32,000 bases of DNA from Gemmata obscuriglobus (GCF_008065095.1 NZ_CP042911.1:2280001-2312000); one strand, 5' to 3'; numbered from the stretch's first letter, positions 8,339 to 23,788 are shown. Translations and numbers: made by a program. Notes: generated by a model not told the origin, from the sequence alone.

Positions 8339-10711
8339 GTGCCAGCTAGCCTTCGGCCTTTGAGACCCGGAATGTCCGAGCCGTCCGCGACCGAGCCCAG
8401 TGCCTCGCTTCTCTCCGTGATCGAACCGGTTGCCCCGGCCGATCTTGCTGCGGTGCCGTCACGCCGCGAGCGGCTCGCGTGGTACGCGGGTACCGCGCTG
8501 CTGGCTCTGGTTCTTGTGTCGGCCGGGCTGCGGATCGCCGAGCAGGACCTCGGGGCACCGTTTTACTACGACCTCGACTCCCTCCTGTACCTGCCGTGGG
8601 TGAAGAGCATCATCCTGCACGGCACCCACTGGCACAACGACCGATTGGGCGCGCCGGGGGGGCAGGAGCTGTACGACTTCCCGGTCATTGACTATCTGCA
8701 CTTCGCGTTCCTGTGGGTGCTGGGGCGGCTCACGTCCGACGTGTTCCTTGCGTACAACCTGTACTACCTGCTCACCTACCCGCTTACCGCGCTGACCGGG
8801 ATGGCGGTGCTGAGGTGGCTCAAACTGTCGCTCCCGGCCGCGGCGGTTGGCGCGCTGCTGTACGCGTTCCTCCCGTACCACCAGGAGCGGTTCCAGTACC
8901 ACTTCTTTTTGTCGGCGTACTGGGTCGTGCCGCTGTCGCTGGTGCCGGCGCTTGCCATCTGTAAGGGCGAACTGCTTCTGTTCCCGCTCGCGCCGGACGG
9001 CTCCCGACGGTTCCGGCCGTTCGCACCCGGGGCGCTGTGGACCCTGGTCGTTGGCGCGTTGACCGCGTCGGCCGGGGCGTACTACGCGTTCTTCGCGTGC
9101 GCGGTGTACGCGTTCGTGGGCCTGTACGCGGTGGTGATGTTCCACACCTGGAAGGCCGTCGCCGCGGCGGCGTGGGTGATCGCGCCGGTGGTGGCGGTCG
9201 GGGTCGCGTATCACTATCCGACGGCGGCGTACCAGGCCCGCAACGGGGTGAACCCGATCACCGACCGCGGCCCCGAAGAGGCCGAACTGTACGCGCTCAA
9301 GCTCTCGCACCTGGTGCTCCCGGCGACCGACCACAACGTCGCGAAGTTGTCGCGGCTCCGCGCGCTGTACGCGGCGAACCGGCCGGCCGACGGCGAGAGC
9401 GGCGGGTCACTGGGGGCGGTCGGCGGGGGCGGCTTGGTGGGGCTGCTGGTGCTGGCACTGTTCCCGCGCCGGCGGCGCTGGCCGGAGGCCCCGCTCGCGG
9501 CGCTGGTGCTGTTCCTGGTGCTGCTCGGCACCGTGGGCGGGCTCGGGTCGCTGTTTAACCTGCTGGTCACCGCCCAGATCCGCGCGTACGCGCGGATCAG
9601 CGTGTACATCGGGTTCTTGTGCATCTTCATGAGCGTGTGGTGGGCGGACCGGTTCCTGCTCACCCGGACGGGGGCGCGGGCGAGGCGGCTCCGCTACCCG
9701 GCGCTCGCGGCGCTGCTCGTTTTGGGCTACTTCGACCAGACGCCGTGGGGCTGGAACTGGTTCAACCCGCACGGGATGGCGATGGTGCGGGACCATGCTG
9801 AGCGGTTCCGCGCGGACGAGCGGTTCTTCCGCAAGGTCGAAGAGAAGTGCCCCGGCGCGCGGGTGTTCTGTCTTCCGTATGTGGCGTACCCGGAGAGCCC
9901 GCCCGTGCAGCGGGTCGCGGCCTACGAGCACGCCCGCGGGTACCTCCTGACCGACACCCTGAGCTGGAGCTTCGGGACGGTGAAGCGGCGCGAGACCGAC
10001 ATGTGGCTGAAGGACGTCGCGTTCCAGCCGCCGGAGGAGTTCCTCCGGCGGATCGTGGTGCGCGGGTTCGACGGCCTGTTCATCGACAGCCGCGGGTTCC
10101 CGCGCAAGGCGGACCCGGCGCGGAGCGAGCCGGCGTCGGCGTTCAACCCGATCGACCGGGTTCACACGCTGTACGCGGACCTCGTGCGCAAGAAGGGGCT
10201 CACGCTGCCGGAGGTCGCTCACGAAGACGGGCGGCAGTTTTTCCTCGACCTGCGCCCGTACCGCGACGCGTACCGCGACCTCGTCGGACCTACGGCGTTC
10301 GAGCAGCAGGCGACGCAGGAGCGGGAGTGGATCGCCCCGCTGTACCTGAAGGGGTTCATCGTGTACGACCAGGTGGACGACAACGAACAGATCCGGTGGG
10401 GCAGCTACGACGCGCACCTCATGTTCGTGAACCCGGCGGACCGCACCCGGCGGATCGACTTTTCGTTCACCCTTGGAGTGGAGGTGGACGGCGTGTTCCA
10501 CTTCTCGTTCAGCGGGATGCCCGGGCTCCAGTGGCCGGAGTTCGACCTCGAACGTAAGACCGACGGGTACGGGCACGCGTTCCACAACATCGAGCTGCCG
10601 CCGGGGCGCTCGACGCTCCGAATCCGGTGCACGCCGCCGGAGTCGTACGTGCCGTTTGACCACCGGAAGATTTGCTATTCCATCCGACACCTCCGGATCG
10701 TGGAGAAGTAA
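8339..10711 (+). CDS. Large polytopic membrane protein with a ~320-aa C-terminal soluble domain (GT-C-like or envelope polymer-modifying; function unknown)
   Basis: There are about 12 hydrophobic segments up to roughly residue 470. A loop motif YYDLDSLLYLPWVKSIILHGTHWHNDRLGAPGGQELYDFP follows TM1. The C-terminal domain includes FCLPYVAYPESPP ... YEHARGYLLTDTLSWSFGTVKRRETDMW. The start is either GTG 8339 or ATG 8372. Confidence 0.6.
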   Translation: MPASLRPLRPGMSEPSATEPSASLLSVIEPVAPADLAAVPSRRERLAWYAGTALLALVLVSAGLRIAEQDLGAPFYYDLDSLLYLPWVKSIILHGTHWHNDRLGAPGGQELYDFPVIDYLHFAFLWVLGRLTSDVFLAYNLYYLLTYPLTALTGMAVLRWLKLSLPAAAVGALLYAFLPYHQERFQYHFFLSAYWVVPLSLVPALAICKGELLLFPLAPDGSRRFRPFAPGALWTLVVGALTASAGAYYAFFACAVYAFVGLYAVVMFHTWKAVAAAAWVIAPVVAVGVAYHYPTAAYQARNGVNPITDRGPEEAELYALKLSHLVLPATDHNVAKLSRLRALYAANRPADGESGGSLGAVGGGGLVGLLVLALFPRRRRWPEAPLAALVLFLVLLGTVGGLGSLFNLLVTAQIRAYARISVYIGFLCIFMSVWWADRFLLTRTGARARRLRYPALAALLVLGYFDQTPWGWNWFNPHGMAMVRDHAERFRADERFFRKVEEKCPGARVFCLPYVAYPESPPVQRVAAYEHARGYLLTDTLSWSFGTVKRRETDMWLKDVAFQPPEEFLRRIVVRGFDGLFIDSRGFPRKADPARSEPASAFNPIDRVHTLYADLVRKKGLTLPEVAHEDGRQFFLDLRPYRDAYRDLVGPTAFEQQATQEREWIAPLYLKGFIVYDQVDDNEQIRWGSYDAHLMFVNPADRTRRIDFSFTLGVEVDGVFHFSFSGMPGLQWPEFDLERKTDGYGHAFHNIELPPGRSTLRIRCTPPESYVPFDHRKICYSIRHLRIVEK

Positions 10712-10721
10712 TAGGAGAGGG

Positions 10722-10752
10722 GCGGCCGGCTGCCGGAGCCGCTGCCATTTTT
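10722..10752 (+). terminator. Candidate rho-independent terminator
   Basis: The GC hairpin is gcggccgg-ctg-ccgg(a)gccgc, followed by tgccattttt. It lies 11 nt after the stop at 10711. Confidence 0.5.
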
Positions 10753-10859
10753 CGCTTCCCGCCCAGTTTGTTTGCTCACGCGCGCAAACTCATTCCTTCG
10801 GAAGCACTTCGGAGAGGAAACCGGCCGGCGGCGAATGAAAGTCCGACCCGCTCGCAACG

Positions 10860-10865
10860 TATAAT
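10860..10865 (+). promoter_or_regulatory. Perfect TATAAT hexamer about 50 nt upstream of the gdh start (candidate -10 box)
   Basis: tataat is at 10860-10865 in a GC-rich context. No convincing -35 is seen (gaaagt at 17-nt spacing). A GAGG Shine-Dalgarno lies 8 nt before ATG 10915. Confidence 0.3.
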
Positions 10866-10914
10866 CCCGTAGTGCCTGCTACGGTCCTCCTCTCCTTCCG
10901 TCTGAGGTACGCAC

Positions 10915-12207
10915 ATGTCCGCTATGCCCCCGGGAAACCCGGCCTCGAATCCGTTCGTTACGTCGCCCACGTACTTGATGGCGTGCCAGCAGTTGCGGAA
11001 CGTCGCGCGCGCCATCAGCCTCGATCCGGGCCTCACCGACCGTCTCATGACGCCCAAGCGGTCGCAGGTCGTCGCCATCCCGGTGCGGATGGAGGACGGG
11101 CGGACGGAGACCTTTGTCGGGTACCGCGTTCAGCACTCGCTCACCAGCGGTCCGAGCAAAGGGGGCCTCCGGTACGCCAAGAACGTGGACCTGGGCGAAG
11201 TCGCCGCGCTGGCCATGTGGATGAGCTGGAAGTGCGGGATCATGAACCTGCCGTTCGGTGGGGCGAAGGGCGGCATCGCGGTGGACCCCGCCGAACTCAA
11301 GGGCGGGGAGAAGGAGCGACTCACCCGGCGGTTCACGGACGAGATCCAGAACATCATCGGGCCGCGGGTCGACGTGATGGCGCCCGACATGGGCACCGAC
11401 GAGCAGACCATGGCGTGGATCTACGACACTTACTCCATGAAGGTGGGGTACGCGTGCCCCGAGATCGTCACCGGCAAACCGGTGGAACTCGGCGGCTGCG
11501 TCGGGCGGAAGGAGGCGACCGGGCGCGGGGTGGTGTACTGCATCACGGAGGCGTTCAACGAACTCGACATCCGCCCCGAGACCGCGACGGCCGTCGTGCA
11601 AGGGTTCGGCAACGTCGGGTCGGTGACCTGCGAGGAACTGGTCAAACTCGGGGTGAAGGTGGTCGCGGTCGGCGACCGGTACGGGTCGATCCGCAACGCC
11701 CGCGGGATCGACATCCCGCAACTGCTGAACTACGCGGCCCGGAACCCGCGCAAGACCATCGTCGGGTTTCCGGGAGCGGAAGCGATCCCGGACGCGGAGC
11801 TGCTCACCACGCCCTGCACGGTCCTGGTCCCGGCCGCTCTGGAGCGGGTCATCACCGCCGAGAACGCCGGTCAACTCCGGTGCCGGGTGCTCGCCGAGGC
11901 CGCCAACGGCCCCACCGACCCTGAAGCCGATGCGATCATCTCGAACAGCGACATCTTCGTCATCCCCGACATCCTGTGCAACGCCGGCGGCGTGACGGTG
12001 TCGTACTTCGAGTGGGTGCAGGACCTCGCCCAGTTCATGTGGGACGAGGAGGAGGTCAACTCGCAGCTCAAGAAGCAGATGCTGCGGGCGTTCCACCGGG
12101 TGCGGGCCGAGGCGAAGGCGCGGAACTTCGGGAACCGCCTCGCGGCGCTGAGCTTGGGGGTGCAAAAAGTCGCGACCGAGAAGCAGAAGCGCGGGCTCTA
12201 CCCGTAA
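10915..12207 (+). CDS. gdhA: Glutamate dehydrogenase (Glu/Leu/Phe/Val dehydrogenase family)
   Basis: The catalytic-site region is KGGLRYAKNVDLGEVAALAMWMSWKCGIMNLPFGGAKGGI. The dinucleotide fold is VVQGFGNVGS. Further matches are PDILCNAGGVTVSYFEWVQ and the 430-aa length. Confidence 0.95.
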   Translation: MSAMPPGNPASNPFVTSPTYLMACQQLRNVARAISLDPGLTDRLMTPKRSQVVAIPVRMEDGRTETFVGYRVQHSLTSGPSKGGLRYAKNVDLGEVAALAMWMSWKCGIMNLPFGGAKGGIAVDPAELKGGEKERLTRRFTDEIQNIIGPRVDVMAPDMGTDEQTMAWIYDTYSMKVGYACPEIVTGKPVELGGCVGRKEATGRGVVYCITEAFNELDIRPETATAVVQGFGNVGSVTCEELVKLGVKVVAVGDRYGSIRNARGIDIPQLLNYAARNPRKTIVGFPGAEAIPDAELLTTPCTVLVPAALERVITAENAGQLRCRVLAEAANGPTDPEADAIISNSDIFVIPDILCNAGGVTVSYFEWVQDLAQFMWDEEEVNSQLKKQMLRAFHRVRAEAKARNFGNRLAALSLGVQKVATEKQKRGLYP

Positions 12208-12214
12208 GCAAAAC

Positions 12215-12291
12215 AAAAAGCAGACGGTTGGCCGATAAACGCGAAGGGGGCTTGATCCGCGCCCTTCGCGTTCGTCGGCCGCTGCCTTTTT
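12215..12291 (+). terminator. Rho-independent terminator after gdh (long imperfect hairpin plus T-run)
   Basis: The inner stem is aacgcgaaggg ... cccttcgcgtt. The outer imperfect stem is aaaaagcag..ggccga / tcggccgctgccttttt, ending in ttttt. Confidence 0.7.
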
Positions 12292-12360
12292 ATTCGTCCC
12301 ACTCGTATCATCACTTCGCGCTTCATGTGAAGCCCCACGCCTGTCTCTCGGACCTGACCG

Positions 12361-14136
12361 ATGTTGAGCGCCGGCCCGACTCCGTCTGCGGCGACCCCCT
12401 CCTCGTCTTCGCCACATCCGTCCCGGTGGCCCGACGTGGTTTGGCTCGCGGTGCTGGCCGCGTGGTCGGCGGCGTGGTGCCTCACGGCCGCGCCGAAGCT
12501 CGGCGTAACTTACGACGAGCCGTTCTATCTCGACGCCGGGATGGACGCCTGGCGCGGCTGGGTTCGAGAGGACGGCGGCTGGCGCGGGTGGGCGCACGGC
12601 AGTTGCGCGGTCAACGGCGTAATGCCGCTCCCGATCGATGCGCTCACCCTGCCGCTGTTCGTGTACGAATGCCGGACGGGTGAAAAATTCGGTCCCGGCG
12701 AATCGAAAATCGAAAAGCTGCGGTGGGCACGAGCCGTCACGCTGGGCTGGTTCTGGCTTCTCATCTTCTCGGGGTGGCGCCTCGGGCGGGCTGTCGGCGG
12801 CCCGTGGGCCGGGCGCATCGCCGCCGGACTGCTCGCTACCGATCCCAACTTCCTTGGGCACGCGTCGGTCGCTACCACCGACATCTGCGTGTGCGCCACG
12901 CTGATGGCGTACACCCGCGCCGTGTACGCAGGGCAGACCGGCGGCTGCTGGAAGCGGCTGCTGCTGCCGGGACTGTGGTTCGGTGTGGCGGCGGTGTCGA
13001 AGTTGTCCGCGCTGCTCTACGGCGGCATCATCCTCGTGGTGCTGGAGGTGTGCTTCCGGTGCGCGTCCGGGGCGTTGTCCCGCCCGTCGGGCGGTGATCT
13101 GAAGGCGTGGGGGCGAAAAGTGGCGGGTGCGGTGCTGCGGTCGGTGCTCAACGCCGCGGGCGTGCTCGCCGTGGGAATTGCGTTCGCGTTCGCGTTCCTG
13201 GGTGTACCGGACGAGGACGACAAGCCCTTCGTGAAAGTGGCCGCGAGCGTTCCCGCGGGCGAGCCGCTGAAAGAGCGGTACGCGAAGTGGGCCGAGGGGA
13301 TCGGATCGGGGCAAGTGCCCTACGCCGCGTGCGCGTTCGCGTTCCAGTGGTGGCACAACGCCCAGGGGCGGCCCACGTTCCTCGACGGCGTTTACTACCC
13401 CGAGAGCTACCGGTGGTACTTCCCCCACGTGCTGCTCATGAAGGTGCCGCTCCCGATTTTTGCGCTGGCGCTCGTCGCGCTGCTGCGGGCTCGTGCGGTC
13501 GCGAACCCGTTGACGTTCGCGGCGCTGCTGCTGCTCGCGGCGCTGCTAACGGCGAAGCTCCAGATCGGCGTGCGGCTCGCGTTCCCGGTGGTGGCGATCG
13601 GGTACGTCGCGCTCGCGGTCGCGTTGGCACGCGGGTACCCCCGGTGCGCGACGCGGCTCGCGGCACCGGCGGTGTTGGCGCTGGCCGCCACGTCGCTGTG
13701 GGTGTGGCCGCACGGTCTTGGGTACATCAACCAGGCGCACGGCGGGCCGAAGGAAGGGTACCGGCTCGTCACCGATTCGAACGTGGACTGGGGGCACGGG
13801 CTGCCGGAACTGAAGGAGTGGCACGCGGCCAACGGGGAGCCGCCCATTTGTGTCTGGTACTTCGGCACCGATCCGGCGGTGAATCAGCCGCCGTTTCAGA
13901 AGTTCTCGCCGGAATCGTTCAAGCCCGCGATCACAAACGAACGAGAACTTCGTGCAGCGGTAGGCTCGCGGGTGCTGGCGGTGGGGCACACGGTGGCGTC
14001 ACTGCACCCGGACGCGCCGCCGGAGAAGGTGGTGGCGCTCGGGTGCCTGAAGGCGCGGCGCCCGGTCGCCCGCACGGCGACGTTCACCCTGTACGACTTC
14101 CGCGACGGGCAAAACGGGTCGCCGGCGCTCGAATAA
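12361..14136 (+). CDS. Glycosyltransferase family 39 (ArnT/PMT_2-like) membrane protein
   Basis: The first-loop Asp-Glu motif is GVTYDEPFYLDAGMD. More than 10 hydrophobic segments follow. The C-terminal periplasmic part includes DSNVDWGHGLPELKEW. Confidence 0.7.
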   Translation: MLSAGPTPSAATPSSSSPHPSRWPDVVWLAVLAAWSAAWCLTAAPKLGVTYDEPFYLDAGMDAWRGWVREDGGWRGWAHGSCAVNGVMPLPIDALTLPLFVYECRTGEKFGPGESKIEKLRWARAVTLGWFWLLIFSGWRLGRAVGGPWAGRIAAGLLATDPNFLGHASVATTDICVCATLMAYTRAVYAGQTGGCWKRLLLPGLWFGVAAVSKLSALLYGGIILVVLEVCFRCASGALSRPSGGDLKAWGRKVAGAVLRSVLNAAGVLAVGIAFAFAFLGVPDEDDKPFVKVAASVPAGEPLKERYAKWAEGIGSGQVPYAACAFAFQWWHNAQGRPTFLDGVYYPESYRWYFPHVLLMKVPLPIFALALVALLRARAVANPLTFAALLLLAALLTAKLQIGVRLAFPVVAIGYVALAVALARGYPRCATRLAAPAVLALAATSLWVWPHGLGYINQAHGGPKEGYRLVTDSNVDWGHGLPELKEWHAANGEPPICVWYFGTDPAVNQPPFQKFSPESFKPAITNERELRAAVGSRVLAVGHTVASLHPDAPPEKVVALGCLKARRPVARTATFTLYDFRDGQNGSPALE

Positions 14137-14450
14137 TACTCGCGCGTTCGTGTTGATACTTCTGTGCGGATGGGATATCTGACTGCGTCAACCTCGTTCG
14201 TGTGAAGCGGGGCGAGAGGTTACGGACGGGGCGCGCGGAACCGTTAGGGGTGTAGTGATGAGGGCGCGAAAAAAGCGCCGAACACGCACGGTTTCGCTCG
14301 GCGTGCAACTTGTTTTTCAGAGACCCCGCGTTACGATTCGTTCTTAAAGCGTTCTCGCTCGGACCCGATCCGGGTGCGGGGCGCACCCGAGAAGCCGGCC
14401 GCCGCGTGGCGCCGGCCCGGGACTGGTGGACCCCTGGAGTCACCCGGCGT

Positions 14451-15896
14451 ATGTTCGAGTCCGACGCCCGACACCCGCTCATCGAGCGCGCGGTCGCACC
14501 GGCCGCGAGCGGGTTCGAGGACGAAGAGCCCCCGAGTCAGCCGCGCCGGCACCCGCTCTGGAAGGACGTGCCCGACGCCCAGTGGGACGACTGGCGCTGG
14601 CAGACCCAGAACTCCATCCGCTCGGTCCGCCAACTGCGCACCCTTCTGTCGTTCACCCCAGAAGAGCTCGAAGCGCTCGGCGAACTGGAGAGCGAGTACA
14701 AGCTCGCCATCCCCCCGTACTTCTTCTCCCTGATCGACCCCGAAGACCCCAACGACCCGATCCGGCTCCAGTCGGTCCCGTCGCCCCTGGAGGCGGAAAG
14801 CGCTTCGGGGCACGAACTCGACGACCCGCTCGAAGAAGAGAAGGACTCACCGGTCCCGGGGCTGACGCACCGCTACAGTGACCGCGCGCTGCTGGTCACC
14901 ACCCCGAACTGCACGATGTACTGCCGGTACTGCACCCGCAAGCGCGCGACGCTCACGCGCGGCGGGTGGGAAGGGGTCAGCGCCGACGACGAGCGCATGA
15001 TCCAGTACGTGCGCGAGCACCGCGAGATCAAGGACGTGATCGTGAGCGGCGGCGACCCGCTCACGCTGCCGATGGGCAAGCTGCGGTACTACCTCGAAAG
15101 CCTGAAGGCGATGAAACACGTCGACGTGATCCGCGTCGGCACCCGCGTCCCCGTCACGCTCCCGCAGCGGCTCTACGACCCGGAACTGATCGACCTCCTC
15201 GGCTCGGCCGAGAAGGTGTACGTTCAGACCCACTTCAACCACCCGCGCGAGGTGACCCCCGAGGCGGTGCGGGCGTGCAAGTCGCTGCTCCGCGCCGGGG
15301 TGCCGATCAACAACCACACCGTGCTGCTCAAGGGCGTGAACGACGACGTGGGCACGATGCGGTCGCTGTTCCGCGCTCTGTTGCGGGCGAAGGTGCGGCC
15401 GTACTACCTGTTCCACTGCGACCCGGTGACCGGCGCCGGGCACTTCCGCACGAGCGTGTGGAAGGGGCTCGAGATCATGGAGGGGCTGCGCGGGCACATG
15501 TCCGGGATCGGCATCCCGACCTACGTGGTGGACGGCCCGCAGGGCTCCGGCAAGATCCCGATCCTGCCGAACTACCTCATCTCCATGTCCGACGACGTGG
15601 TGGTGCTGCGGAACTACGAGGGGATGATCGTCCGGTATAAGGCCGACGACAAGCCGATGTCCGCGGGCCAGCCGACCACGACGAAGGGCGTGAGCGGGTT
15701 GCTCCAGGGTGATAAGGGGTCGTTGATCCCCGAGGGCAACGAGCGCATGGCGCGGCGCAAGCCGCGGGTAGTGCGCGACGGGTGTGGGGGCGGCGAGCGA
15801 GACGCGAACAGCGACGGCGCGGCGATGCGGCCGATCATTCCGCTCCCGCTCCTGAACAGCGGGAACGGCAACGGGAACATCGCGTCCAACGGCTGA
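14451..15896 (+). CDS. kamA: Lysine 2,3-aminomutase (KamA/AblA-type radical SAM, PLP enzyme)
   Basis: LWKDVPDAQWDDWRWQTQNSI and SPVPGLTHRYSDRALLVTTPNCTMYCRYCTRKR (CxxxCxxC) align closely with my memory of Bacillus KamA. Other matches are VIVSGGDPL, HFNHPREVT, NHTVLLKGVNDD, RPYYLFHCDPV, VVDGPQGSGK and PNYLI. The in-frame ORF extends up to TTG 14310, so the start is uncertain. A C-terminal Gly/Asn-rich tail of about 80 aa is present. Confidence 0.92.
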   Translation: MFESDARHPLIERAVAPAASGFEDEEPPSQPRRHPLWKDVPDAQWDDWRWQTQNSIRSVRQLRTLLSFTPEELEALGELESEYKLAIPPYFFSLIDPEDPNDPIRLQSVPSPLEAESASGHELDDPLEEEKDSPVPGLTHRYSDRALLVTTPNCTMYCRYCTRKRATLTRGGWEGVSADDERMIQYVREHREIKDVIVSGGDPLTLPMGKLRYYLESLKAMKHVDVIRVGTRVPVTLPQRLYDPELIDLLGSAEKVYVQTHFNHPREVTPEAVRACKSLLRAGVPINNHTVLLKGVNDDVGTMRSLFRALLRAKVRPYYLFHCDPVTGAGHFRTSVWKGLEIMEGLRGHMSGIGIPTYVVDGPQGSGKIPILPNYLISMSDDVVVLRNYEGMIVRYKADDKPMSAGQPTTTKGVSGLLQGDKGSLIPEGNERMARRKPRVVRDGCGGGERDANSDGAAMRPIIPLPLLNSGNGNGNIASNG

Positions 15897-15977
15897 CCGC
15901 AGCCGTGCCTCAGCCGAACCCCGGGCGGCGCCCGGGGTTCGTTGGTTCCCGGGTCCGAGTCGTGCAAGGAGGTTCGC

Positions 15978-16217
15978 ATGTCCGCGCCGGCACCGGACCC
16001 GAAGGACGACGCGAAACAGGAGCGGTCCAACGCGGTCGTGTGGGCGCTGGCGTCTGCGGCGGTCGCGGTCGGCCTGTTGATGTACGCCGGCCGGATCGAA
16101 CCCGGGAAGCAAAAAACGTATTACATCCTGGCGGGGCTGGCGGCGGCGGTCGCCGCGGTTAACGGGTACGGCGCCTGGTCGCTCTACAAGAACGCTCATC
16201 CGCCCGCTGCCAAGTAG
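15978..16217 (+). CDS. Small two-TM membrane protein (79 aa), hypothetical
   Basis: ATG 15978 is preceded by caaggagg. The two hydrophobic helices are AVVWALASAAVAVGLLMYAG and YYILAGLAAAVAAVNGYGAW. It sits between kamA and the ATP-grasp gene on the same strand. Confidence 0.55.
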   Translation: MSAPAPDPKDDAKQERSNAVVWALASAAVAVGLLMYAGRIEPGKQKTYYILAGLAAAVAAVNGYGAWSLYKNAHPPAAK

Positions 16218-16244
16218 CGGGCTTCCTGCGGAGGCGAACCGGCC

Positions 16245-17267
16245 GTGCGAATCGGAATCGCGTGTACTTTGAAGCCGGACGGCCCGCTCCCGCCCGGCGC
16301 GCCGGACGATCTGCACGAGGAGTTCGACTCCCCCGCGACCGTCAAGGCCATCGCGGACGTGCTCGCGTCTCTCGGTCACACCGTCGCCCTGCTCGGTGAC
16401 GGCCGCGCACTGATCGAATCTCTACTAAACGCTCCCCCGGATCTGGTGTTCAACTTCGCGGAAGGGGCCGGGGTGAGCCGGTCGCGCGAGGCCCGTGTGC
16501 CGGCGGTGTGCGAGATGCTGGGCGTCCCGTATACCGGCTCAGATCCGTTCGCACTGGCGGTCGCGCTCGACAAGGACGCGACCCGGCGGCTCGCCGAATC
16601 CTACGGGCTGACGGTTCCCAAAGGCATCACCCTGGCACCGGTCGCGGGCGAGTACGACGGGGATTTCGCGGAGTTCGCCCCGGCCCTCGAAGACGCCGGG
16701 CTGACGCTCCCGGTGATCGCGAAGCCGACCTGCGAGGGGTCGAGCAAGGGCATCCGCGGGAAGTGCCTCATCACCTCAGCGGCCGAGTTCGGTCCCGCCG
16801 TGGTCGAACTGTGGAGGAACTACCAGCAACCGGTCTTGGTGGAGGAGTACATTGCCGGCGACGAGATCACCATTGGGTTGTACGGGAGCGACCCGCCGCA
16901 GCCGATCGGGGTGATGCAGATCGTGCCGAAGCAGTCGCCCGAGAGCTTCGTGTACAGCCTCGAGGTGAAGCGCAACTGGGCCGATGCGGTCGACTACGTT
17001 GCCCCCGCGAAGCTGCCGCGCGAGGTGCTGCACGCGATCGAGGCCGACGCGATGGCCCTGTACGCGGGCCTCGGCTGCCGGGACGTGGCGCGGCTCGATT
17101 TCCGCGTGCGAGACGGTGTGCCGTACTTCCTGGAGATCAACCCACTTCCCGGGCTGAACCCCGACTCGGGCGACCTGTGCTACCTCGCGTACCGCATGGG
17201 GCTGACGTACCCGGAACTCATCGGGCTGATCCTCGACTCCGCGGCCGCGCGCTACGGATTACGGTAA
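16245..17267 (+). CDS. D-alanine--D-alanine ligase-like ATP-grasp ligase (paralog 1)
   Basis: The GTG start has GGAGG 10 nt upstream. ATP-grasp motifs are LPVIAKPTCEGSSKGI, PVLVEEYIAGDEITIG and ARLDFRVRDGVPYFLEINPLPGL. The N-terminal part (EFDSPATVKAIADVLASLGH) is a pre-ATP-grasp domain. Confidence 0.85.
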   Translation: MRIGIACTLKPDGPLPPGAPDDLHEEFDSPATVKAIADVLASLGHTVALLGDGRALIESLLNAPPDLVFNFAEGAGVSRSREARVPAVCEMLGVPYTGSDPFALAVALDKDATRRLAESYGLTVPKGITLAPVAGEYDGDFAEFAPALEDAGLTLPVIAKPTCEGSSKGIRGKCLITSAAEFGPAVVELWRNYQQPVLVEEYIAGDEITIGLYGSDPPQPIGVMQIVPKQSPESFVYSLEVKRNWADAVDYVAPAKLPREVLHAIEADAMALYAGLGCRDVARLDFRVRDGVPYFLEINPLPGLNPDSGDLCYLAYRMGLTYPELIGLILDSAAARYGLR

Positions 17268-17558
17268 CCGCCGGCGCCAGTAGCCCGGTCGTCGGCTCGT
17301 GTGCATCACCGCGAGCAGCAGAACCGTGTTCGCATCGAGTTCGAGGTAAACCAGCAGGTACGGGAAACTGGGCAGGCGGTAGAACCTTGTTCCATCGGTG
17401 TGCGGTGCAAAACTGGCGGGAGCAGCCCCGATGGACGCGATTCCGGTATCGAATTCGTCCAGGAACCGTGCGACCAGACGCTGGCTGACGCGGGCGTAGC
17501 GTCGGCGCGCCAGCCGAGCCTCCTCGATTGCCCGCGGGTGAAGGTCAACGGCCGCCAT
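17259..17558 (-). CDS. Type II toxin, RelE/ParE family
   Basis: The protein is 99 aa. FYRLPSFPYLLVYLELDANTVLLLAVMHTSRRPGYWRRR is the typical ParE/RelE C-terminal core. The gene overlaps the upstream antitoxin gene by 14 nt. Confidence 0.85.
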   Translation of the reverse strand: MAAVDLHPRAIEEARLARRRYARVSQRLVARFLDEFDTGIASIGAAPASFAPHTDGTRFYRLPSFPYLLVYLELDANTVLLLAVMHTSRRPGYWRRRLP

Positions 17559-17784
17559 CGGCGTCGTCCAAGATTTGCTGCCGAGCGGTGGCCCAAGGAA
17601 CCGCTTTCACTTGGCCGCTGCGCACCTCTTCGATTCGCGCTTGGAGTTCCTGGCCCCATCCACCCTCGTCTTCGGTACCCGCATTGGGTTCGAGGCTGTC
17701 GAGTAAGTGCGCGGCCAGTTCGGCGCGGTCCGCGTTGGGCAACTGGAGCAGTGTTTCGAGAATCGCGTTCGCAGCTTGCGTCAT
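17545..17784 (-). CDS. Antitoxin, 'putative addiction module component' type
   Basis: The protein is 79 aa. LLQLPNADRAELAAHLLDSLEP ... WGQELQARIEEVRSGQVKAVPW matches the pattern of that antitoxin family. It lies immediately upstream of the toxin and overlaps it. Confidence 0.8.
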   Translation of the reverse strand: MTQAANAILETLLQLPNADRAELAAHLLDSLEPNAGTEDEGGWGQELQARIEEVRSGQVKAVPWATARQQILDDADGGR

Positions 17785-17845
17785 GTGTCACCTCAACGGG
17801 ATACTACATTATTGGTCGTGTTCTGTGCAACTACCGGGGCAATCC

Positions 17846-18547
17846 GTGATCTCAACGCGCGATTTGTCCGGCCTGCTGCCCGTCGATCTGCTGAAACGCA
17901 TCATGCAGAGCATGGCGATGCTCGACGCGATTCTTTCGCCGGAGTGGGAGTACCGTTACTACTCGTTCAACGTGAAGTGGGCGCCCGAAGAGCAAATGGG
18001 GTCGATGCGGAATGGAAGCGGCGACGACCTGTTCGCGCTTTTTAATGCGCACGGCTGCTTTATCAAAGGATTCGACCACGAGGCACTGATGTCTCCATAC
18101 GGTCGGCAGCCGAAGGCGGTGTGGCCAGGAGTGTTGGACGCTGTCCCGAAGGCGTTTGAACGCGGGTTGAGTGAGCCGGCGTTTGCGATGGAAGACACCA
18201 CGTTTTGCATTTGGCGCCAGTACGGCGACGAACAATGGCACCGCGGTGTGATTGAGTTTCCGCCGCCGAAACTCCGTTTCGATGGGGCGCCACTCGATCC
18301 CGACGGCTCTGGTGATTTGCTCTCACCCTACGATGGTAATCCAGTAACGTATCTCGCCTGGGCGATCTACCGCTTCGGCGGTTTGACGGGTGAAAACCTC
18401 ACACTCGAACACGTTCAGCACGTCTATGACCACAAACCATTGACCGCGGAACTGGTGCGGGAGATTAACCCCGAGTTGCCGCTGGGCGACCTCGACGGCG
18501 ACATCGAAGAAATCGGTTATCCGCGACGCGGTGCCAAGAAGGATTAG
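17846..18547 (+). CDS. Hypothetical protein (233 aa), no family recognised
   Basis: GTG 17846 is the first start that does not overlap the TA pair. The annotated ORF start at 17528 runs antisense through the TA genes. The gene reads divergently from the antitoxin. G+C is about 57% in three hand-counted 60-nt blocks, against about 67-73% in neighbouring genes. Distinctive segments are SPEWEYRYYSFNVKW, GSGDDLFALFNAHGCFIKGFDHE and TTFCIWRQYGD. Confidence 0.6.
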   Translation: MISTRDLSGLLPVDLLKRIMQSMAMLDAILSPEWEYRYYSFNVKWAPEEQMGSMRNGSGDDLFALFNAHGCFIKGFDHEALMSPYGRQPKAVWPGVLDAVPKAFERGLSEPAFAMEDTTFCIWRQYGDEQWHRGVIEFPPPKLRFDGAPLDPDGSGDLLSPYDGNPVTYLAWAIYRFGGLTGENLTLEHVQHVYDHKPLTAELVREINPELPLGDLDGDIEEIGYPRRGAKKD

Positions 18548-18626
18548 AAAACACTCTTGGTGGCTTCGCCGCGCCGGACGGTGACACCAACGCGACCCCT
18601 GCCCGCGCACCGCGACGAGCGAACCC

Positions 18627-19694
18627 ATGACCGCGCCTTCCGTACTCGTCCTCTACAACGAACCGGTGCTGCCGCCCGACCACCCGGACGCCAACTCCGA
18701 ACACGACATCTACGACACCGTCGGCGACGCCTACAAGGTGCTGGTCGCGGCCGGGTTCGTTACAACCAAGCTCGGCATCAACCACGATCCGCAACCGCTA
18801 CTCGATGCGCTCAAACGCGACCGCCCGGCCGCCGTGTTCAACCTCTTCGAGGGCATCGCGACCCAAACGAGCACCGAGGTTTCGGCGGCGGCGCTGCTCG
18901 AGTGGCTCAACGTGCCGTTCACGGGCTGCCCTGCGGCGGCGCTTGCGCTGGGGCGCGACAAGGTCCGCACCAAACACGTCCTCGCGGCCAGCGGGGTTCC
19001 CACGCCGGACTACCTCATCGTCGACACGCTGCCGGTTCCGACTTGGTGCCATGGCTGGCCCGCGATCGTGAAGCCCGCTTACCAGGACGCGAGCGTCGGC
19101 ATCGAGCAGAGCAGTGTGGTTACCTCGCAGGAACAGCTCCAAGCCCAAGTTGCACACACGCTCGCGACCTACGGTCCGCCCGCGATCGTCGAGCGCTACA
19201 TTAAGGGGCGCGAGCTTCACGTCAACGTAATCGAACCGTTCGGCGCGACCGGCGGCGAACCGGTGGCGCTCGCACCGACCGAGATCGCGTTCCAGAAGGA
19301 CGAGCCGGGGCGCTGGGCGGTCTACACCTTCGCCGCCAAATGGCACGAGCAGAGCGACGAGTACAAGGCCGCGTCGCTCAAGTTCCCGGTTGATCTGCCC
19401 GCGGCCGATTTCGCCCGGCTCGCGCAGATCGTGCAACGCTCGTTCCGTGTGGTCGGGTGCCGTGACTACGCGCGCGTCGATGTGCGCATGGACGCCGGCG
19501 GTGCGTTCCACGTCCTCGAAGTGAACCCGAACCCGTACCTGAACAGCATCACCCTCGTGGACGGCTTGAAGGCGCGCGGGAGTTCTTACGAGCGGTTCGT
19601 GGTGGAACTGACACTGGCCGCGCTGGCCCGCGGTGGGATTGCCCTGCCCGCGGGCGCGGTTACCGTTCCGGTGGGACTCATTTCCGGCTCGTGA
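18627..19694 (+). CDS. D-alanine--D-alanine ligase-like ATP-grasp ligase (paralog 2)
   Basis: Motifs are PAIVKPAYQDASVGI, PAIVERYIKGRELHVNVI and ARVDVRMDAGGAFHVLEVNPNPYL. The N-terminal domain is colinear with the 16245-17267 protein (AAVFNLFEG.. vs DLVFNFAEG..; LNVPFTG vs LGVPYTG). Confidence 0.85.
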   Translation: MTAPSVLVLYNEPVLPPDHPDANSEHDIYDTVGDAYKVLVAAGFVTTKLGINHDPQPLLDALKRDRPAAVFNLFEGIATQTSTEVSAAALLEWLNVPFTGCPAAALALGRDKVRTKHVLAASGVPTPDYLIVDTLPVPTWCHGWPAIVKPAYQDASVGIEQSSVVTSQEQLQAQVAHTLATYGPPAIVERYIKGRELHVNVIEPFGATGGEPVALAPTEIAFQKDEPGRWAVYTFAAKWHEQSDEYKAASLKFPVDLPAADFARLAQIVQRSFRVVGCRDYARVDVRMDAGGAFHVLEVNPNPYLNSITLVDGLKARGSSYERFVVELTLAALARGGIALPAGAVTVPVGLISGS

Positions 19695-22171: not shown

Positions 22172-23788
22172 ATGCGCACCCTTGCACTCTTGTCGGCCTA
22201 CGCCGGGGCTCTGGCTCTGGGCACGTACCAGACGTTTTACCCCACGTTCGACACGGGGTTCGCCAACGTTCAGACCGAGCGCGGCGACGGGATGCTGAAT
22301 CACCTGATCCTGGAGAATTCGTGGCTCGCGCTGTCGGACCCCGACTACCGGGGGACGCTCGCGACAGCCCCGTTCTTTTTCCCGGAACGGTACACCATCG
22401 CCTACTCCGAGAACCTGTTCGGCTCGGCCCCCGTTTACTGGGCGCTTCGGCTCGTGACCGGGCACGAACTGGCTTACGCATGGTGGCAGATCGTGTGTAC
22501 GGCCCTCAACTTCGTGGCGCTCGCGGTGGTGTGCCGCTGGCTGCGGATGCCGCACGCGCTCGCGCTCACCGGCGCGTTCGTGGGGGCGTTCGCGGTCGTC
22601 TACGCCGACCAGATCAAGCACGCGCAGATGATCCCGCGGTTCTATTCGCCGTTCGTCGTCTACTACGCGATCGTGCTGGTCACCGAGGCCGAGGGGAAGG
22701 CGAAGGCTCTCAACCGGATGCTGGGCGCCCTGTTCTTGCAGTGCCTCGCGTGCGTCTACACCGGGTGGTTCCTCGCGACCGGATTGGCGGTGTTTTTCCC
22801 GCTCCTGGTCGCTTTGCGGCCGGGTTCGGCGGGCGAGTTGCGGGCGTTTGCTGTCGCGAACAAGCGGCGGGTGGGCGGCATCTTGCTCCTCTGGGCGGGC
22901 GCGATGCTCGCGCTGTTCGTACCGTACATCCTGGTGAACTTCGGGGTCACGCGCACCTACGAGGAGTGCTACAACCTGTTCCCGACCCCGAGTGCTTGGT
23001 TCACCGGGCCGAAGGACGCGCGGTGGTCGGAAACGCTCGCACAGGTTCGCGACCCGGCGCCTTACGAGTGTCTGCTGTTCTCCGGGTTCGCGCTCTACGG
23101 CCTGATCCTGGCCGCGTGCGTACATCTGCCACTCATCGGCCGCGACCGGCGTGGGCCGCTGTGGCCGGCGGCCGCCGCGGCCCTGGTGACGGCCGCCCTT
23201 TGGGTGCTGTTCACGATGCCCGCGTCCCAGACCGGCGAATCGCTGTGGCGGGTCGTGCGGCTCATTCCCGGTGGGAACGCGATCCGGGTGGTTTCGCGGG
23301 TGTACGTCACCGTGTACCTGTTCGGCACAATGGGAATGCTCCTGTGGCTGTCGTCCGTGCTGGAGCGGCCCGGCCTCGGGTGGGTACGAATCGCGCTCGT
23401 CCCAGTGCTGGCCCTTCTGGTATGGGAGCAGACCGGGTACCACCAGGAGAGCTTCTCGCGCAAAGACTTCTACCCGTTCGTCGACCAGCACGCCGAAACC
23501 CTGCGGGGCGGGGACGCGGGCTACGTTGTGCCCCGGTTCGTGGACGGCGAAGGGTTGGTGAGCACCGGCGCCTACGGTGAGGTGTTCTCGATGTGGGTCG
23601 GGATGCGAGCTAACGTGCCGGTGGTGAACGGGTACAGCGGGCGGTGGCCGAACGACTTCCCACAACCGGAGGGCGGAGCCCTATCCGACAACGAACTGCA
23701 GGTGTGGCTCGCGGGCCGCTACAAGGGGAGGGTGCGGCGGGTCGATTCCGAGTTCCCGGGTGTTTCGTCCGAAGTTGTCATCGAGTGA
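22172..23788 (+). CDS. Polytopic membrane protein, GT-C/PMT_2-like (hypothetical glycosyltransferase)
   Basis: The protein is 538 aa with about 11 hydrophobic segments. The first loop is ERGDGMLNHLILENSWLAL ... APFFFPERYTIAYSENLFGSAPVYWALRL. A short C-terminal soluble domain is present. Confidence 0.55.
   Translation: MRTLALLSAYAGALALGTYQTFYPTFDTGFANVQTERGDGMLNHLILENSWLALSDPDYRGTLATAPFFFPERYTIAYSENLFGSAPVYWALRLVTGHELAYAWWQIVCTALNFVALAVVCRWLRMPHALALTGAFVGAFAVVYADQIKHAQMIPRFYSPFVVYYAIVLVTEAEGKAKALNRMLGALFLQCLACVYTGWFLATGLAVFFPLLVALRPGSAGELRAFAVANKRRVGGILLLWAGAMLALFVPYILVNFGVTRTYEECYNLFPTPSAWFTGPKDARWSETLAQVRDPAPYECLLFSGFALYGLILAACVHLPLIGRDRRGPLWPAAAAALVTAALWVLFTMPASQTGESLWRVVRLIPGGNAIRVVSRVYVTVYLFGTMGMLLWLSSVLERPGLGWVRIALVPVLALLVWEQTGYHQESFSRKDFYPFVDQHAETLRGGDAGYVVPRFVDGEGLVSTGAYGEVFSMWVGMRANVPVVNGYSGRWPNDFPQPEGGALSDNELQVWLAGRYKGRVRRVDSEFPGVSSEVVIE

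Follow-up and report, generated by a model that had tools for sequence, protein, structure and literature searches.

In the biosynthesis of pyrrolysine, lysine is rearranged by the radical S-adenosylmethionine (SAM) enzyme PylB, and the product is then joined to an amine via an acyl-phosphate by the ATP-grasp enzyme PylC. In methanogens and some bacteria, N-epsilon-acetyl-beta-lysine is made by AblA/AblB, for which an aminomutase gene occurs together with an acetyltransferase gene of the GNAT family, and in the EpmB/EpmA system a KamA-family enzyme makes beta-lysine, which an ATP-dependent enzyme attaches via an amide to elongation factor P (EF-P). ATP-grasp enzymes also build small peptides, as in the routes to glutathione (GshA/GshB, GshF) and to the osmolyte N-acetylglutaminylglutamine amide (Ngg), the latter adding acetylation by a GNAT enzyme. 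In the present study, we analyzed a gene cluster at positions 14,137 to 19,694 of a 32,000-nucleotide stretch of the Gemmata obscuriglobus genome (NZ_CP042911.1:2280001-2312000; this whole stretch is hereafter called the window), which encodes a lysine 2,3-aminomutase (KamA) and two ATP-grasp ligases with the fold of D-alanine--D-alanine ligase (Ddl), here termed lig1 and lig2. An earlier note, made from the sequence of the window, had suggested a beta-lysine ligation pathway. Our results favor, with a probability of roughly 60%, the reading that KamA, lig1 and lig2, with or without a GNAT enzyme, make up a pathway for a beta-lysine amide or peptide, and that the Gemmata cluster is one version of a widespread cassette.

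In full-text literature searches, we found no description linking a lysine 2,3-aminomutase with ATP-grasp or Ddl-like ligases, as the earlier note had supposed, and the system is an uncharacterised pathway assembled from known enzyme families. AblA/AblB is nearest in gene content, since it likewise combines an aminomutase gene with a GNAT gene. However, in the cassette two ATP-grasp ligase genes are interposed between these two and in some cases are fused to that of the aminomutase; furthermore, the cassette KamA scores under the AblA cut-off, the cassette GNAT gave no AblB model, and the Gemmata cluster is without a GNAT. Nearest to KamA and lig1 in logic and mechanism is PylB/PylC, although PylB is not a pyridoxal phosphate (PLP)-dependent aminomutase, its product is 3-methylornithine, and pylD, pylS and pylT are absent here. 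PylC was not among the 60 best PDB sequence matches of the lig1 profile or the 50 best fold matches shown, and the listed matches of both kinds were all Ddl or other ATP-grasp families. The EpmB/EpmA system resembles the proposal in its use of a KamA-family enzyme and ATP-dependent amide formation, but EpmA is a paralogue of lysyl-tRNA synthetase, unlike the ATP-grasp lig1 and lig2. The ATP-grasp domain of GshAB was a distant PDB match of the lig1 profile (3ln7, E = 7e-7); the glutathione and Ngg routes involve neither a beta-amino acid nor a radical-SAM step, and the similarity is at the superfamily level only.

The aminomutase had been described in the earlier note as catalytically complete with a lysine-type site, and the alignment with the Clostridium subterminale enzyme (2A5H; E = 9e-126 over about 400 residues) bears this out. 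KamA (481 aa, 14451-15896, plus strand; Pfam Radical_SAM and LAM_C) lies in an open reading frame (ORF) that spans 14310-15896, of which the ATG at 14451 is the likely start, and its sequence is an exact match to WP_010036402.1 of G. obscuriglobus. The cysteines of its CTMYCRYC motif, C154, C158 and C161, aligned with C125, C129 and C132 of 2A5H, and R163 with the carboxylate-binding R134. D324 and D361, which are 37 residues apart as had been noticed, map to D293 and D330, the residues that bind the epsilon-ammonium group of lysine, and K368, 7 residues beyond D361, maps to the PLP lysine K337. All of these residues were invariant in the 65 cassette KamAs (65/65) that adjoin lig1 in other genomes. 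Glutamate 2,3-aminomutases replace the two epsilon-ammonium-binding Asp residues. The structural zinc site of the clostridial enzyme (C268 and C375/C377/C380) has been lost throughout the cassette KamA clade: the position of C268 is Asp in the window KamA (residue 299) and S, D, T, N or H in the family, and the C-terminal Cys cluster is missing. From about residue 406 onward, the Gemmata KamA has a low-complexity, Gly/Asn-rich tail.

Placement by profile had been proposed in the earlier note as a check. KamA passes the broad KamA-family model TIGR00238 (317 bits against a cut-off of 199), but misses all of the equivalog cut-offs, namely 525.4 bits for AblA (TIGR03820; KamA scored 440.2), 650 for the glutamate aminomutases (KamA 412), 600 for the arginine aminomutases (KamA 362) and 369.3 for EpmB (KamA 230.4). 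The best-scoring NCBIfam model for cassette KamAs is AblA (440-478 bits). Because only the broad family model is passed and the curated cut-offs are missed, KamA is, as judged by its pocket, a lysine-type aminomutase in a subfamily without a curated name, and its actual product would be beta-lysine.

The two ligases, lig1 (340 aa, 16245-17267) and lig2 (355 aa, 18627-19694; an exact match to WP_010036389.1, 'Ddl-like protein'), are both encoded on the plus strand and contain Pfam Dala_Dala_lig_C. They are paralogous (29% identity, E = 1e-25), as the earlier note had recognized. With the NCBIfam models, both failed as Ddl: the best Ddl model, NF002378 (cut-off 243), gave 147.4 bits for lig1 and 131.0 bits for lig2, and TIGR01205 (cut-off 245.65) gave 118 and 117 bits, respectively. 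The orthologues from Dehalococcoidia likewise fell under the Ddl cut-offs, and NCBIfam holds no specific model for lig1 or lig2. The solved structures related in sequence to the ligases are all Ddl/Van enzymes. A structural comparison with true Ddl, also proposed earlier, was made for the fold: the AlphaFold2 model of lig1 (pLDDT 94.2) found only Ddl as its best PDB fold matches, with TM-scores of 0.75-0.79 at 20-26% identity, and the substrate residues were compared by alignment.

For that comparison, 69 lig1-type and 49 lig2-type sequences were aligned with Escherichia coli DdlB, of which the reference sequence was confirmed to be identical to 1IOV/2DLN. The ligands of ATP and Mg2+ (K97, K144, E180, E187, K215, R255, D257, E270 and N272 in DdlB numbering) are kept in both families, and therefore both lig1 and lig2 should be catalytically active ligases. 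By contrast with this shared fold and set of ligands, the D-Ala-binding residues of DdlB (the E15-S150-Y216 triad, H63 and S281/L282) are not all retained in either ligase. The position of H63 is an invariant Glu in both families. In the lig1 family E68 is changed to R, Y216 is deleted and L282 is G or S, with E15 and S150 kept; in the lig2 family E15 is A or S, S150 is A or G and Y216 is W, and Gemmata lig2 has S and A at the first two of these positions. The extra invariant Glu at H63 would fit a substrate with a second ammonium group, for example a diamino acid, and the Glu retained at E15 in lig1 but replaced by Ala/Ser in lig2 would fit the action of lig2 on an N-substituted product. The chemistry is most likely the same as that of Ddl, that is, formation of an acyl-phosphate and then of an amide. 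The position of DdlB G276 is Asp in 45 of the 49 lig2-family members and Tyr in the two Gemmata proteins (Y304 in the window); this may be a specificity shift in Gemmata, which also has no GNAT.

The earlier note had further held that the ligases are functionally tied to kamA, and conserved gene order across phyla together with fused proteins supports this. A lig1 alignment was used to scan a single genome of each GTDB species and gave at least 600 stretches, of which 593 were confirmed to encode a relative, and we analyzed the best 80 of the 593 confirmed loci with flanks of up to 10 kb. A cassette KamA was found within 10 kb in 70 of the 80 loci, mostly directly upstream of lig1 (18/24 in Planctomycetota, 36/37 in Chloroflexota and 16/19 in other phyla), and several of the loci without KamA are cut contigs; the neighbourhood conservation that the earlier note wished to see checked was thus observed. 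The 37 Chloroflexota loci are mostly from Dehalococcoidia, and both this class and Planctomycetota are environmentally important, poorly understood host lineages. Orthologues of lig1 share 42-48% identity between phyla and 72-95% within Gemmataceae. In 10 of the planctomycete loci and 33 of the Chloroflexota loci, lig2 comes immediately 3' of lig1. A GNAT-family acetyltransferase (about 160 aa) is encoded 3' of lig2 in 33 of the 37 Chloroflexota loci and in 9 of the 19 loci from other phyla, whereas all 24 planctomycete loci are without it. The usual operon outside Planctomycetota is KamA-lig1-lig2-GNAT, an order which recurs in Dehalococcoidia, Desulfobacterota-like metagenome-assembled genomes (MAGs), Acidobacteria, Krumholzibacteriia and Myxococcota.

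The absence of GNAT, epmA, efp, kamDE and nonribosomal peptide synthetase (NRPS) genes near kamA, to which the earlier note had drawn attention, holds for the window: profile searches found none of these domains in any larger ORF of the 32 kb, and tblastn of the window with the cassette GNAT family gave no match. However, since a GNAT is the fourth core gene in most other lineages, the missing GNAT is a peculiarity of planctomycetes and not a feature of the system. The best NCBIfam match of the cassette GNAT is RimI (34 bits), and no beta-lysine acetyltransferase (AblB) model was matched in NCBIfam at E <= 1e-3.

When lig1 was searched against 1.84 billion representative proteins, many proteins of 500-790 aa appeared among the best matches. 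Among the listed matches, 14 lig1-lig2 fusions and 2 KamA-lig1 fusions were present as cluster representatives, with the domain order equal to the gene order; the KamA-lig1 fusions (P0199 and P0200) contain Radical_SAM, LAM_C and Dala_Dala_lig_C. In 25 others of the listed matches, domain mapping showed lig1 fused to a third ATP-grasp domain of greater divergence. The two lig1-lig2 fusion genes examined each have KamA upstream and GNAT downstream. Because the clustering recurs in 70 of 80 genomes in several phyla, and as fused proteins, it is far beyond chance; the conserved unit is KamA-lig1-lig2 with or without GNAT, and lig1 is the ligase most tightly coupled to KamA.

In the pathway that we propose, KamA would convert L-lysine to beta-lysine (3,6-diaminohexanoate), lig1 would activate a carboxylate as an acyl-phosphate and join it to an amine, with beta-lysine as one of the partners, and lig2 would carry out a second, similar ligation on the lig1 product to give a small beta-lysine di- or tripeptide or a short oligo-amide. 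Where present, the GNAT enzyme would acetylate the remaining free amine; in Gemmata, without this step, the product would stay cationic. We place lig1 first because it is fused to KamA in some organisms and keeps the Glu which in Ddl anchors the amino group of the acyl donor. We infer the order in which the steps occur, the identity of the second and third building blocks and the role in the cell, and have much less confidence in any specific product than in the general mechanism. One simple candidate is beta-lysyl-beta-lysine or a short oligo-beta-lysine, because Ddl makes a homodipeptide, and a mixed tripeptide is just as possible. Rather than peptidoglycan, the cassette most likely yields a soluble metabolite of the cytoplasm, for instance a compatible solute or a compound resembling a polyamine. 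The neighbours in other lineages (MFS and NAAT/MarC transporters, a histone-deacetylase-family protein and S66 peptidases) also suggest a small amine-bearing metabolite.

Beyond the cluster itself, we consider the chances about evenly balanced that an undescribed pathway of this kind occurs in several hundred or more species-level genomes of Chloroflexota, Planctomycetota, Desulfobacterota-like lineages, Myxococcota, Acidobacteriota, Omnitrophota and others, and makes a new class of beta-lysine peptides (beta-lysyl-beta-lysine, oligo-beta-lysine or X-beta-Lys-Y), mostly acetylated. If the proposal is true, beta-lysine has a new fate in a new, widespread small-molecule pathway. It also offers something concrete to test: G. 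obscuriglobus can be grown in culture and has been reported to be amenable to genetic work, and all three enzymes are small, soluble proteins.

Several points weigh against the proposed pathway. Since KamA misses the AblA cut-off, the assignment of lysine as the substrate comes from the pocket residues only, and the substrates and product of the ligases given above are guesses from sequence. Gemmata is a freshwater organism and has no GNAT, which speaks against a classical zwitterionic osmolyte there. In G. obscuriglobus, an inserted toxin-antitoxin pair stands between lig1 and lig2, and several planctomycete loci (L002 and L017) have no lig2 within 10 kb, so that a two-step pathway is not certain for every genome. 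At locus L013, neither KamA nor lig2 is found within 10 kb of lig1, and L015 has lig1-lig2 without KamA within the available flanks.

One alternative explanation, which is improbable although it survives best, is that the cassette attaches beta-lysine to a macromolecule, either to the carboxylate of a protein, as ATP-grasp enzymes of the RimK or tubulin-tyrosine-ligase type do, or to an envelope polymer, with participation of the membrane proteins and the miniprotein of Gemmata. In the window and in L002 and L003, kamA adjoins genes for large polytopic membrane proteins, one of which is weakly similar to PMT_2 (12361-14136, plus strand, in the window). A relative of another membrane protein of the window (22172-23788) precedes kamA in L006; it is a distant one, with 26% identity (tblastn E = 3e-12). 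Furthermore, in the Gemmata loci a gene for a membrane miniprotein is present inside the cluster. However, the membrane neighbours and the miniprotein are limited to Gemmata-like genomes, and the conserved partners elsewhere, the GNAT, the transporters and the deacetylase-family protein, are typical of small molecules. The ligases have the fold of Ddl, of which the known members join small molecules, and the envelopes of the host lineages are very different from each other.

The miniprotein (79 aa, 15978-16217, plus strand; an exact match to WP_010036399.1) has AGGAGG 6 nt upstream of its start and hydrophobic segments at about residues 19-38 and 49-68, so the two-transmembrane protein that the earlier note had included in the cluster does exist. 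It gave no Pfam or NCBIfam match, and among the 80 loci homologues turned up in two only, the Gemmata loci L001 and L002; the miniprotein is thus a Gemmata-specific insert and not a core component. We also considered it as a precursor peptide of the kind that ribosomes make and that is modified after translation (RiPP), and rejected this because it is confined to Gemmata and the abutting or overlapping genes of the Dehalococcoidia operons leave no space for it.

A somewhat less probable alternative than attachment to a macromolecule is a secreted bioactive, antibiotic-like peptide, for which the GNAT and an S66 peptidase would be self-protective, as are streptothricin acetyltransferases and MccF. 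Beta-lysine is a known building block of antibiotics, and GNAT, MFS transporter and S66 (MccF/LdcA-family) peptidase genes adjoin the ligases in some lineages. On the other hand, the cassette is kept across whole orders, including the small-genome Dehalococcoidales, a pattern more like core physiology than patchy secondary metabolism, and in the 80 loci no NRPS, polyketide synthase or tailoring genes are conserved nearby.

It is quite unlikely that the role of KamA is to provide an EpmA encoded elsewhere with beta-lysine for the lysylation of EF-P, with the ligases as unrelated neighbours. KamA has a family-level similarity to EpmB (230 bits), and a 2026 review lists Planctomycetota and Chloroflexota among the groups with EpmAB-type modification of EF-P. 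However, this score misses the EpmB cut-off (369), the best model is of the AblA type, with a LAM_C domain, neither efp nor epmA is present in the window, and KamA is fused to lig1 in some organisms. In addition, the SEED table of Bailly and de Crecy-Lagard (2010) gives Dehalococcoides strains YjeK and YjeA separately from 'AblA' and 'AblB' entries, which may or may not be cassette genes, and in two of these three strains YjeA adjoins efp; thus a dedicated EpmB can exist beside an AblA-type gene.

The public annotation names the ligases D-alanine--D-alanine ligase, and the possibility that one or both are genuine peptidoglycan enzymes, with the adjacency of kamA incidental, would agree with their three-domain ATP-grasp fold, Dala_Dala_lig_C domain and complete catalytic set, all of which are common to Ddl/Van. 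This is very improbable, and we regard it as the weakest of the alternatives: both ligases score far below the cut-offs (147 and 131 against 243-246 bits), the D-Ala site is altered invariantly in both families, and across phyla the ligase genes occur linked to, or fused with, KamA and GNAT. No mur/dcw genes are present in the 32-kb window or conserved across the 80 loci, and the ligases are abundant in Dehalococcoidia, which are described as being without peptidoglycan. Because the scores are under the cut-offs, the D-Ala site is altered, a cell-wall context is absent and the genes are common in Dehalococcoidia, neither ligase is, as far as its sequence indicates, a true D-Ala-D-Ala ligase; the working would be Ddl-like, but the scores and the substrate residues are not. 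This agrees with the earlier view of the ligases as other than canonical Ddl.

A COG-based review reported that ddl is retained in Gemmatales, whereas most mur genes, mraY, ftsI and ftsW are lacking, which itself argues against a role of the ligases in peptidoglycan synthesis. That survey probably counted lig1/lig2 as ddl. The data of Jeske et al. (2015) give no indication which Gemmata gene, if any, stood for ddl there. If our reading is true, the 'ddl' of Gemmatales and the genes annotated as Ddl in Dehalococcoidia have no cell-wall role, and a systematic annotation error is corrected, since COG-level surveys would probably count lig1/lig2 as ddl. The correction bears on the unresolved debate on whether and how Gemmata-type planctomycetes make peptidoglycan. 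Finally, although KamA is the entry enzyme of clostridial lysine fermentation, a role as the first step of lysine fermentation or catabolism is hardly credible here, as no kamDE, kdd, kce or kal-type genes are present in the window or conserved in the 80 loci, and the conserved partners are ATP-consuming ligases.

As for the arrangement of the Gemmata locus, the gaps of 81 nt between kamA and the small ORF and of 27 nt between the small ORF and lig1 given in the earlier note were confirmed. The second ligase gene does lie further downstream in the window, as had been stated, but this separation is due to insertion. Between lig1 and lig2 are genes for a ParE-family toxin (17259-17558, minus strand; Pfam ParE_toxin, E = 1e-8), an antitoxin annotated as a putative addiction module component (17545-17784, minus strand; Pfam Unstab_antitox, E = 1.7e-12; TIGR02574, 39.4 bits against a cut-off of 31.9) and an ORF of about 215-233 aa without family assignment (17846-18547, plus strand; no Pfam match). 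The 3' end of the toxin gene overlaps the lig1 stop codon by 9 nt. The toxin-antitoxin pair is missing from this position in other loci, as is the ORF, in place of which the second Gemmata genome (L001; KamA, 79-aa ORF, lig1, DUF4058 gene, lig2) has a DUF4058 gene; in other planctomycetes lig1 and lig2 abut, with nothing inserted between them. The pair and the ORF are thus an insertion that splits lig1 from lig2 in G. obscuriglobus, and the ParE toxin is not part of the pathway. A convergent RecD2 helicase gene follows lig2. Inside the cluster, no intrinsic terminators or sigma-70 promoters beyond chance were found. A perfect 11-bp, GC-rich hairpin without a T-run, GAACCCCGGGC-GGC-GCCCGGGGTTC (15915-15941), lies between kamA and the miniprotein gene; it was not scored as an intrinsic terminator, and the fold of 15890-15985 was no more stable than those of shuffled sequences (z = -1.28).

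Upstream, a spacer of 314 nt separates kamA from the PMT_2-like membrane protein gene, which is itself preceded by a glutamate dehydrogenase gene (10915-12207, plus strand). The block with a 790-aa membrane protein and glutamate dehydrogenase is shared by the window (8339-14136) and two related MAGs, L002 (2035-5935) and L003 (709-6449), the last of which also has the PMT_2-like membrane protein; this could be plain synteny or a lineage-specific envelope link. The spacer contains a conserved non-coding block of about 130 nt (14232-14364, plus strand), with counterparts in L001 (7930-8063), L002 (7925-8055) and L003 (8268-8401). Its identity is 84% to Gemmata L001 and 74% over 233 nt to L003, a MAG labelled Isosphaera, and it has the invariant AT-rich cores CAACTTGTTTTTC and GCGTTACGATTCGT..TTAAAGCGT in a genome of 67% GC. 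The block is unique in the window, with 0 chance matches expected, and nhmmer matches were found only 5' of kamA in L001-L003 and, weakly, in L006. A riboswitch or leader RNA was considered here and rejected: at E <= 1, Rfam gave no match in the kamA leader (two implausible ones were inside lig2 only), and RNAalifold on four kamA leaders gave negligible covariation (-0.38 kcal/mol). The block is probably promoter or operator DNA, with a possible TTGTTT-N16-TACGAT promoter, and could lead to the regulator and, through it, to the physiological signal. In other lineages a winged-helix regulator is an occasional neighbour of the cassette.

Some further variations were observed outside Planctomycetota. 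In nine Dehalococcoidales loci, a gene for a 579-aa protein with a C-terminal histone-deacetylase (acetylpolyamine-amidohydrolase-like) domain (for example, L047 13123-14862) comes either directly after the GNAT gene or after a NAAT/MarC transporter gene (L047 12502-13104), and in several loci of this order MFS transporter genes precede KamA (L067 7294-8610). The deacetylase-family protein, the transporters and the GNAT together hint at a cycle of acetylation, deacetylation and transport of the product. In a variant cassette from Margulisbacteria, Omnitrophota and one metagenome contig (three loci: L063 11021-14422, L077 10995-12005 and L082 7164-12253), a RimK/LysX-like ATP-grasp protein and a peptidase of the S66 family (LdcA/MccF-type) take the place of lig2 and the GNAT. 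The KamA and lig1 of L082 are fused into a single protein, upstream of which lies the gene for a zinc-ribbon protein of 66 aa that has an acidic tail and matches Pfam LysW weakly; a LysW-type carrier protein was rejected as a component of the system, since tblastn found no counterpart of this protein near the cassette in other loci. In five Desulfobacterota-like MAGs (L065, L075, L076, L079 and L080) the cassette is split, with KamA-lig2 about 4 kb beyond the lig1 group, and lig1 adjoins tatC, followed by genes for a PAS histidine kinase and a sigma-54 response regulator, which suggests sigma-54-dependent control in these organisms.

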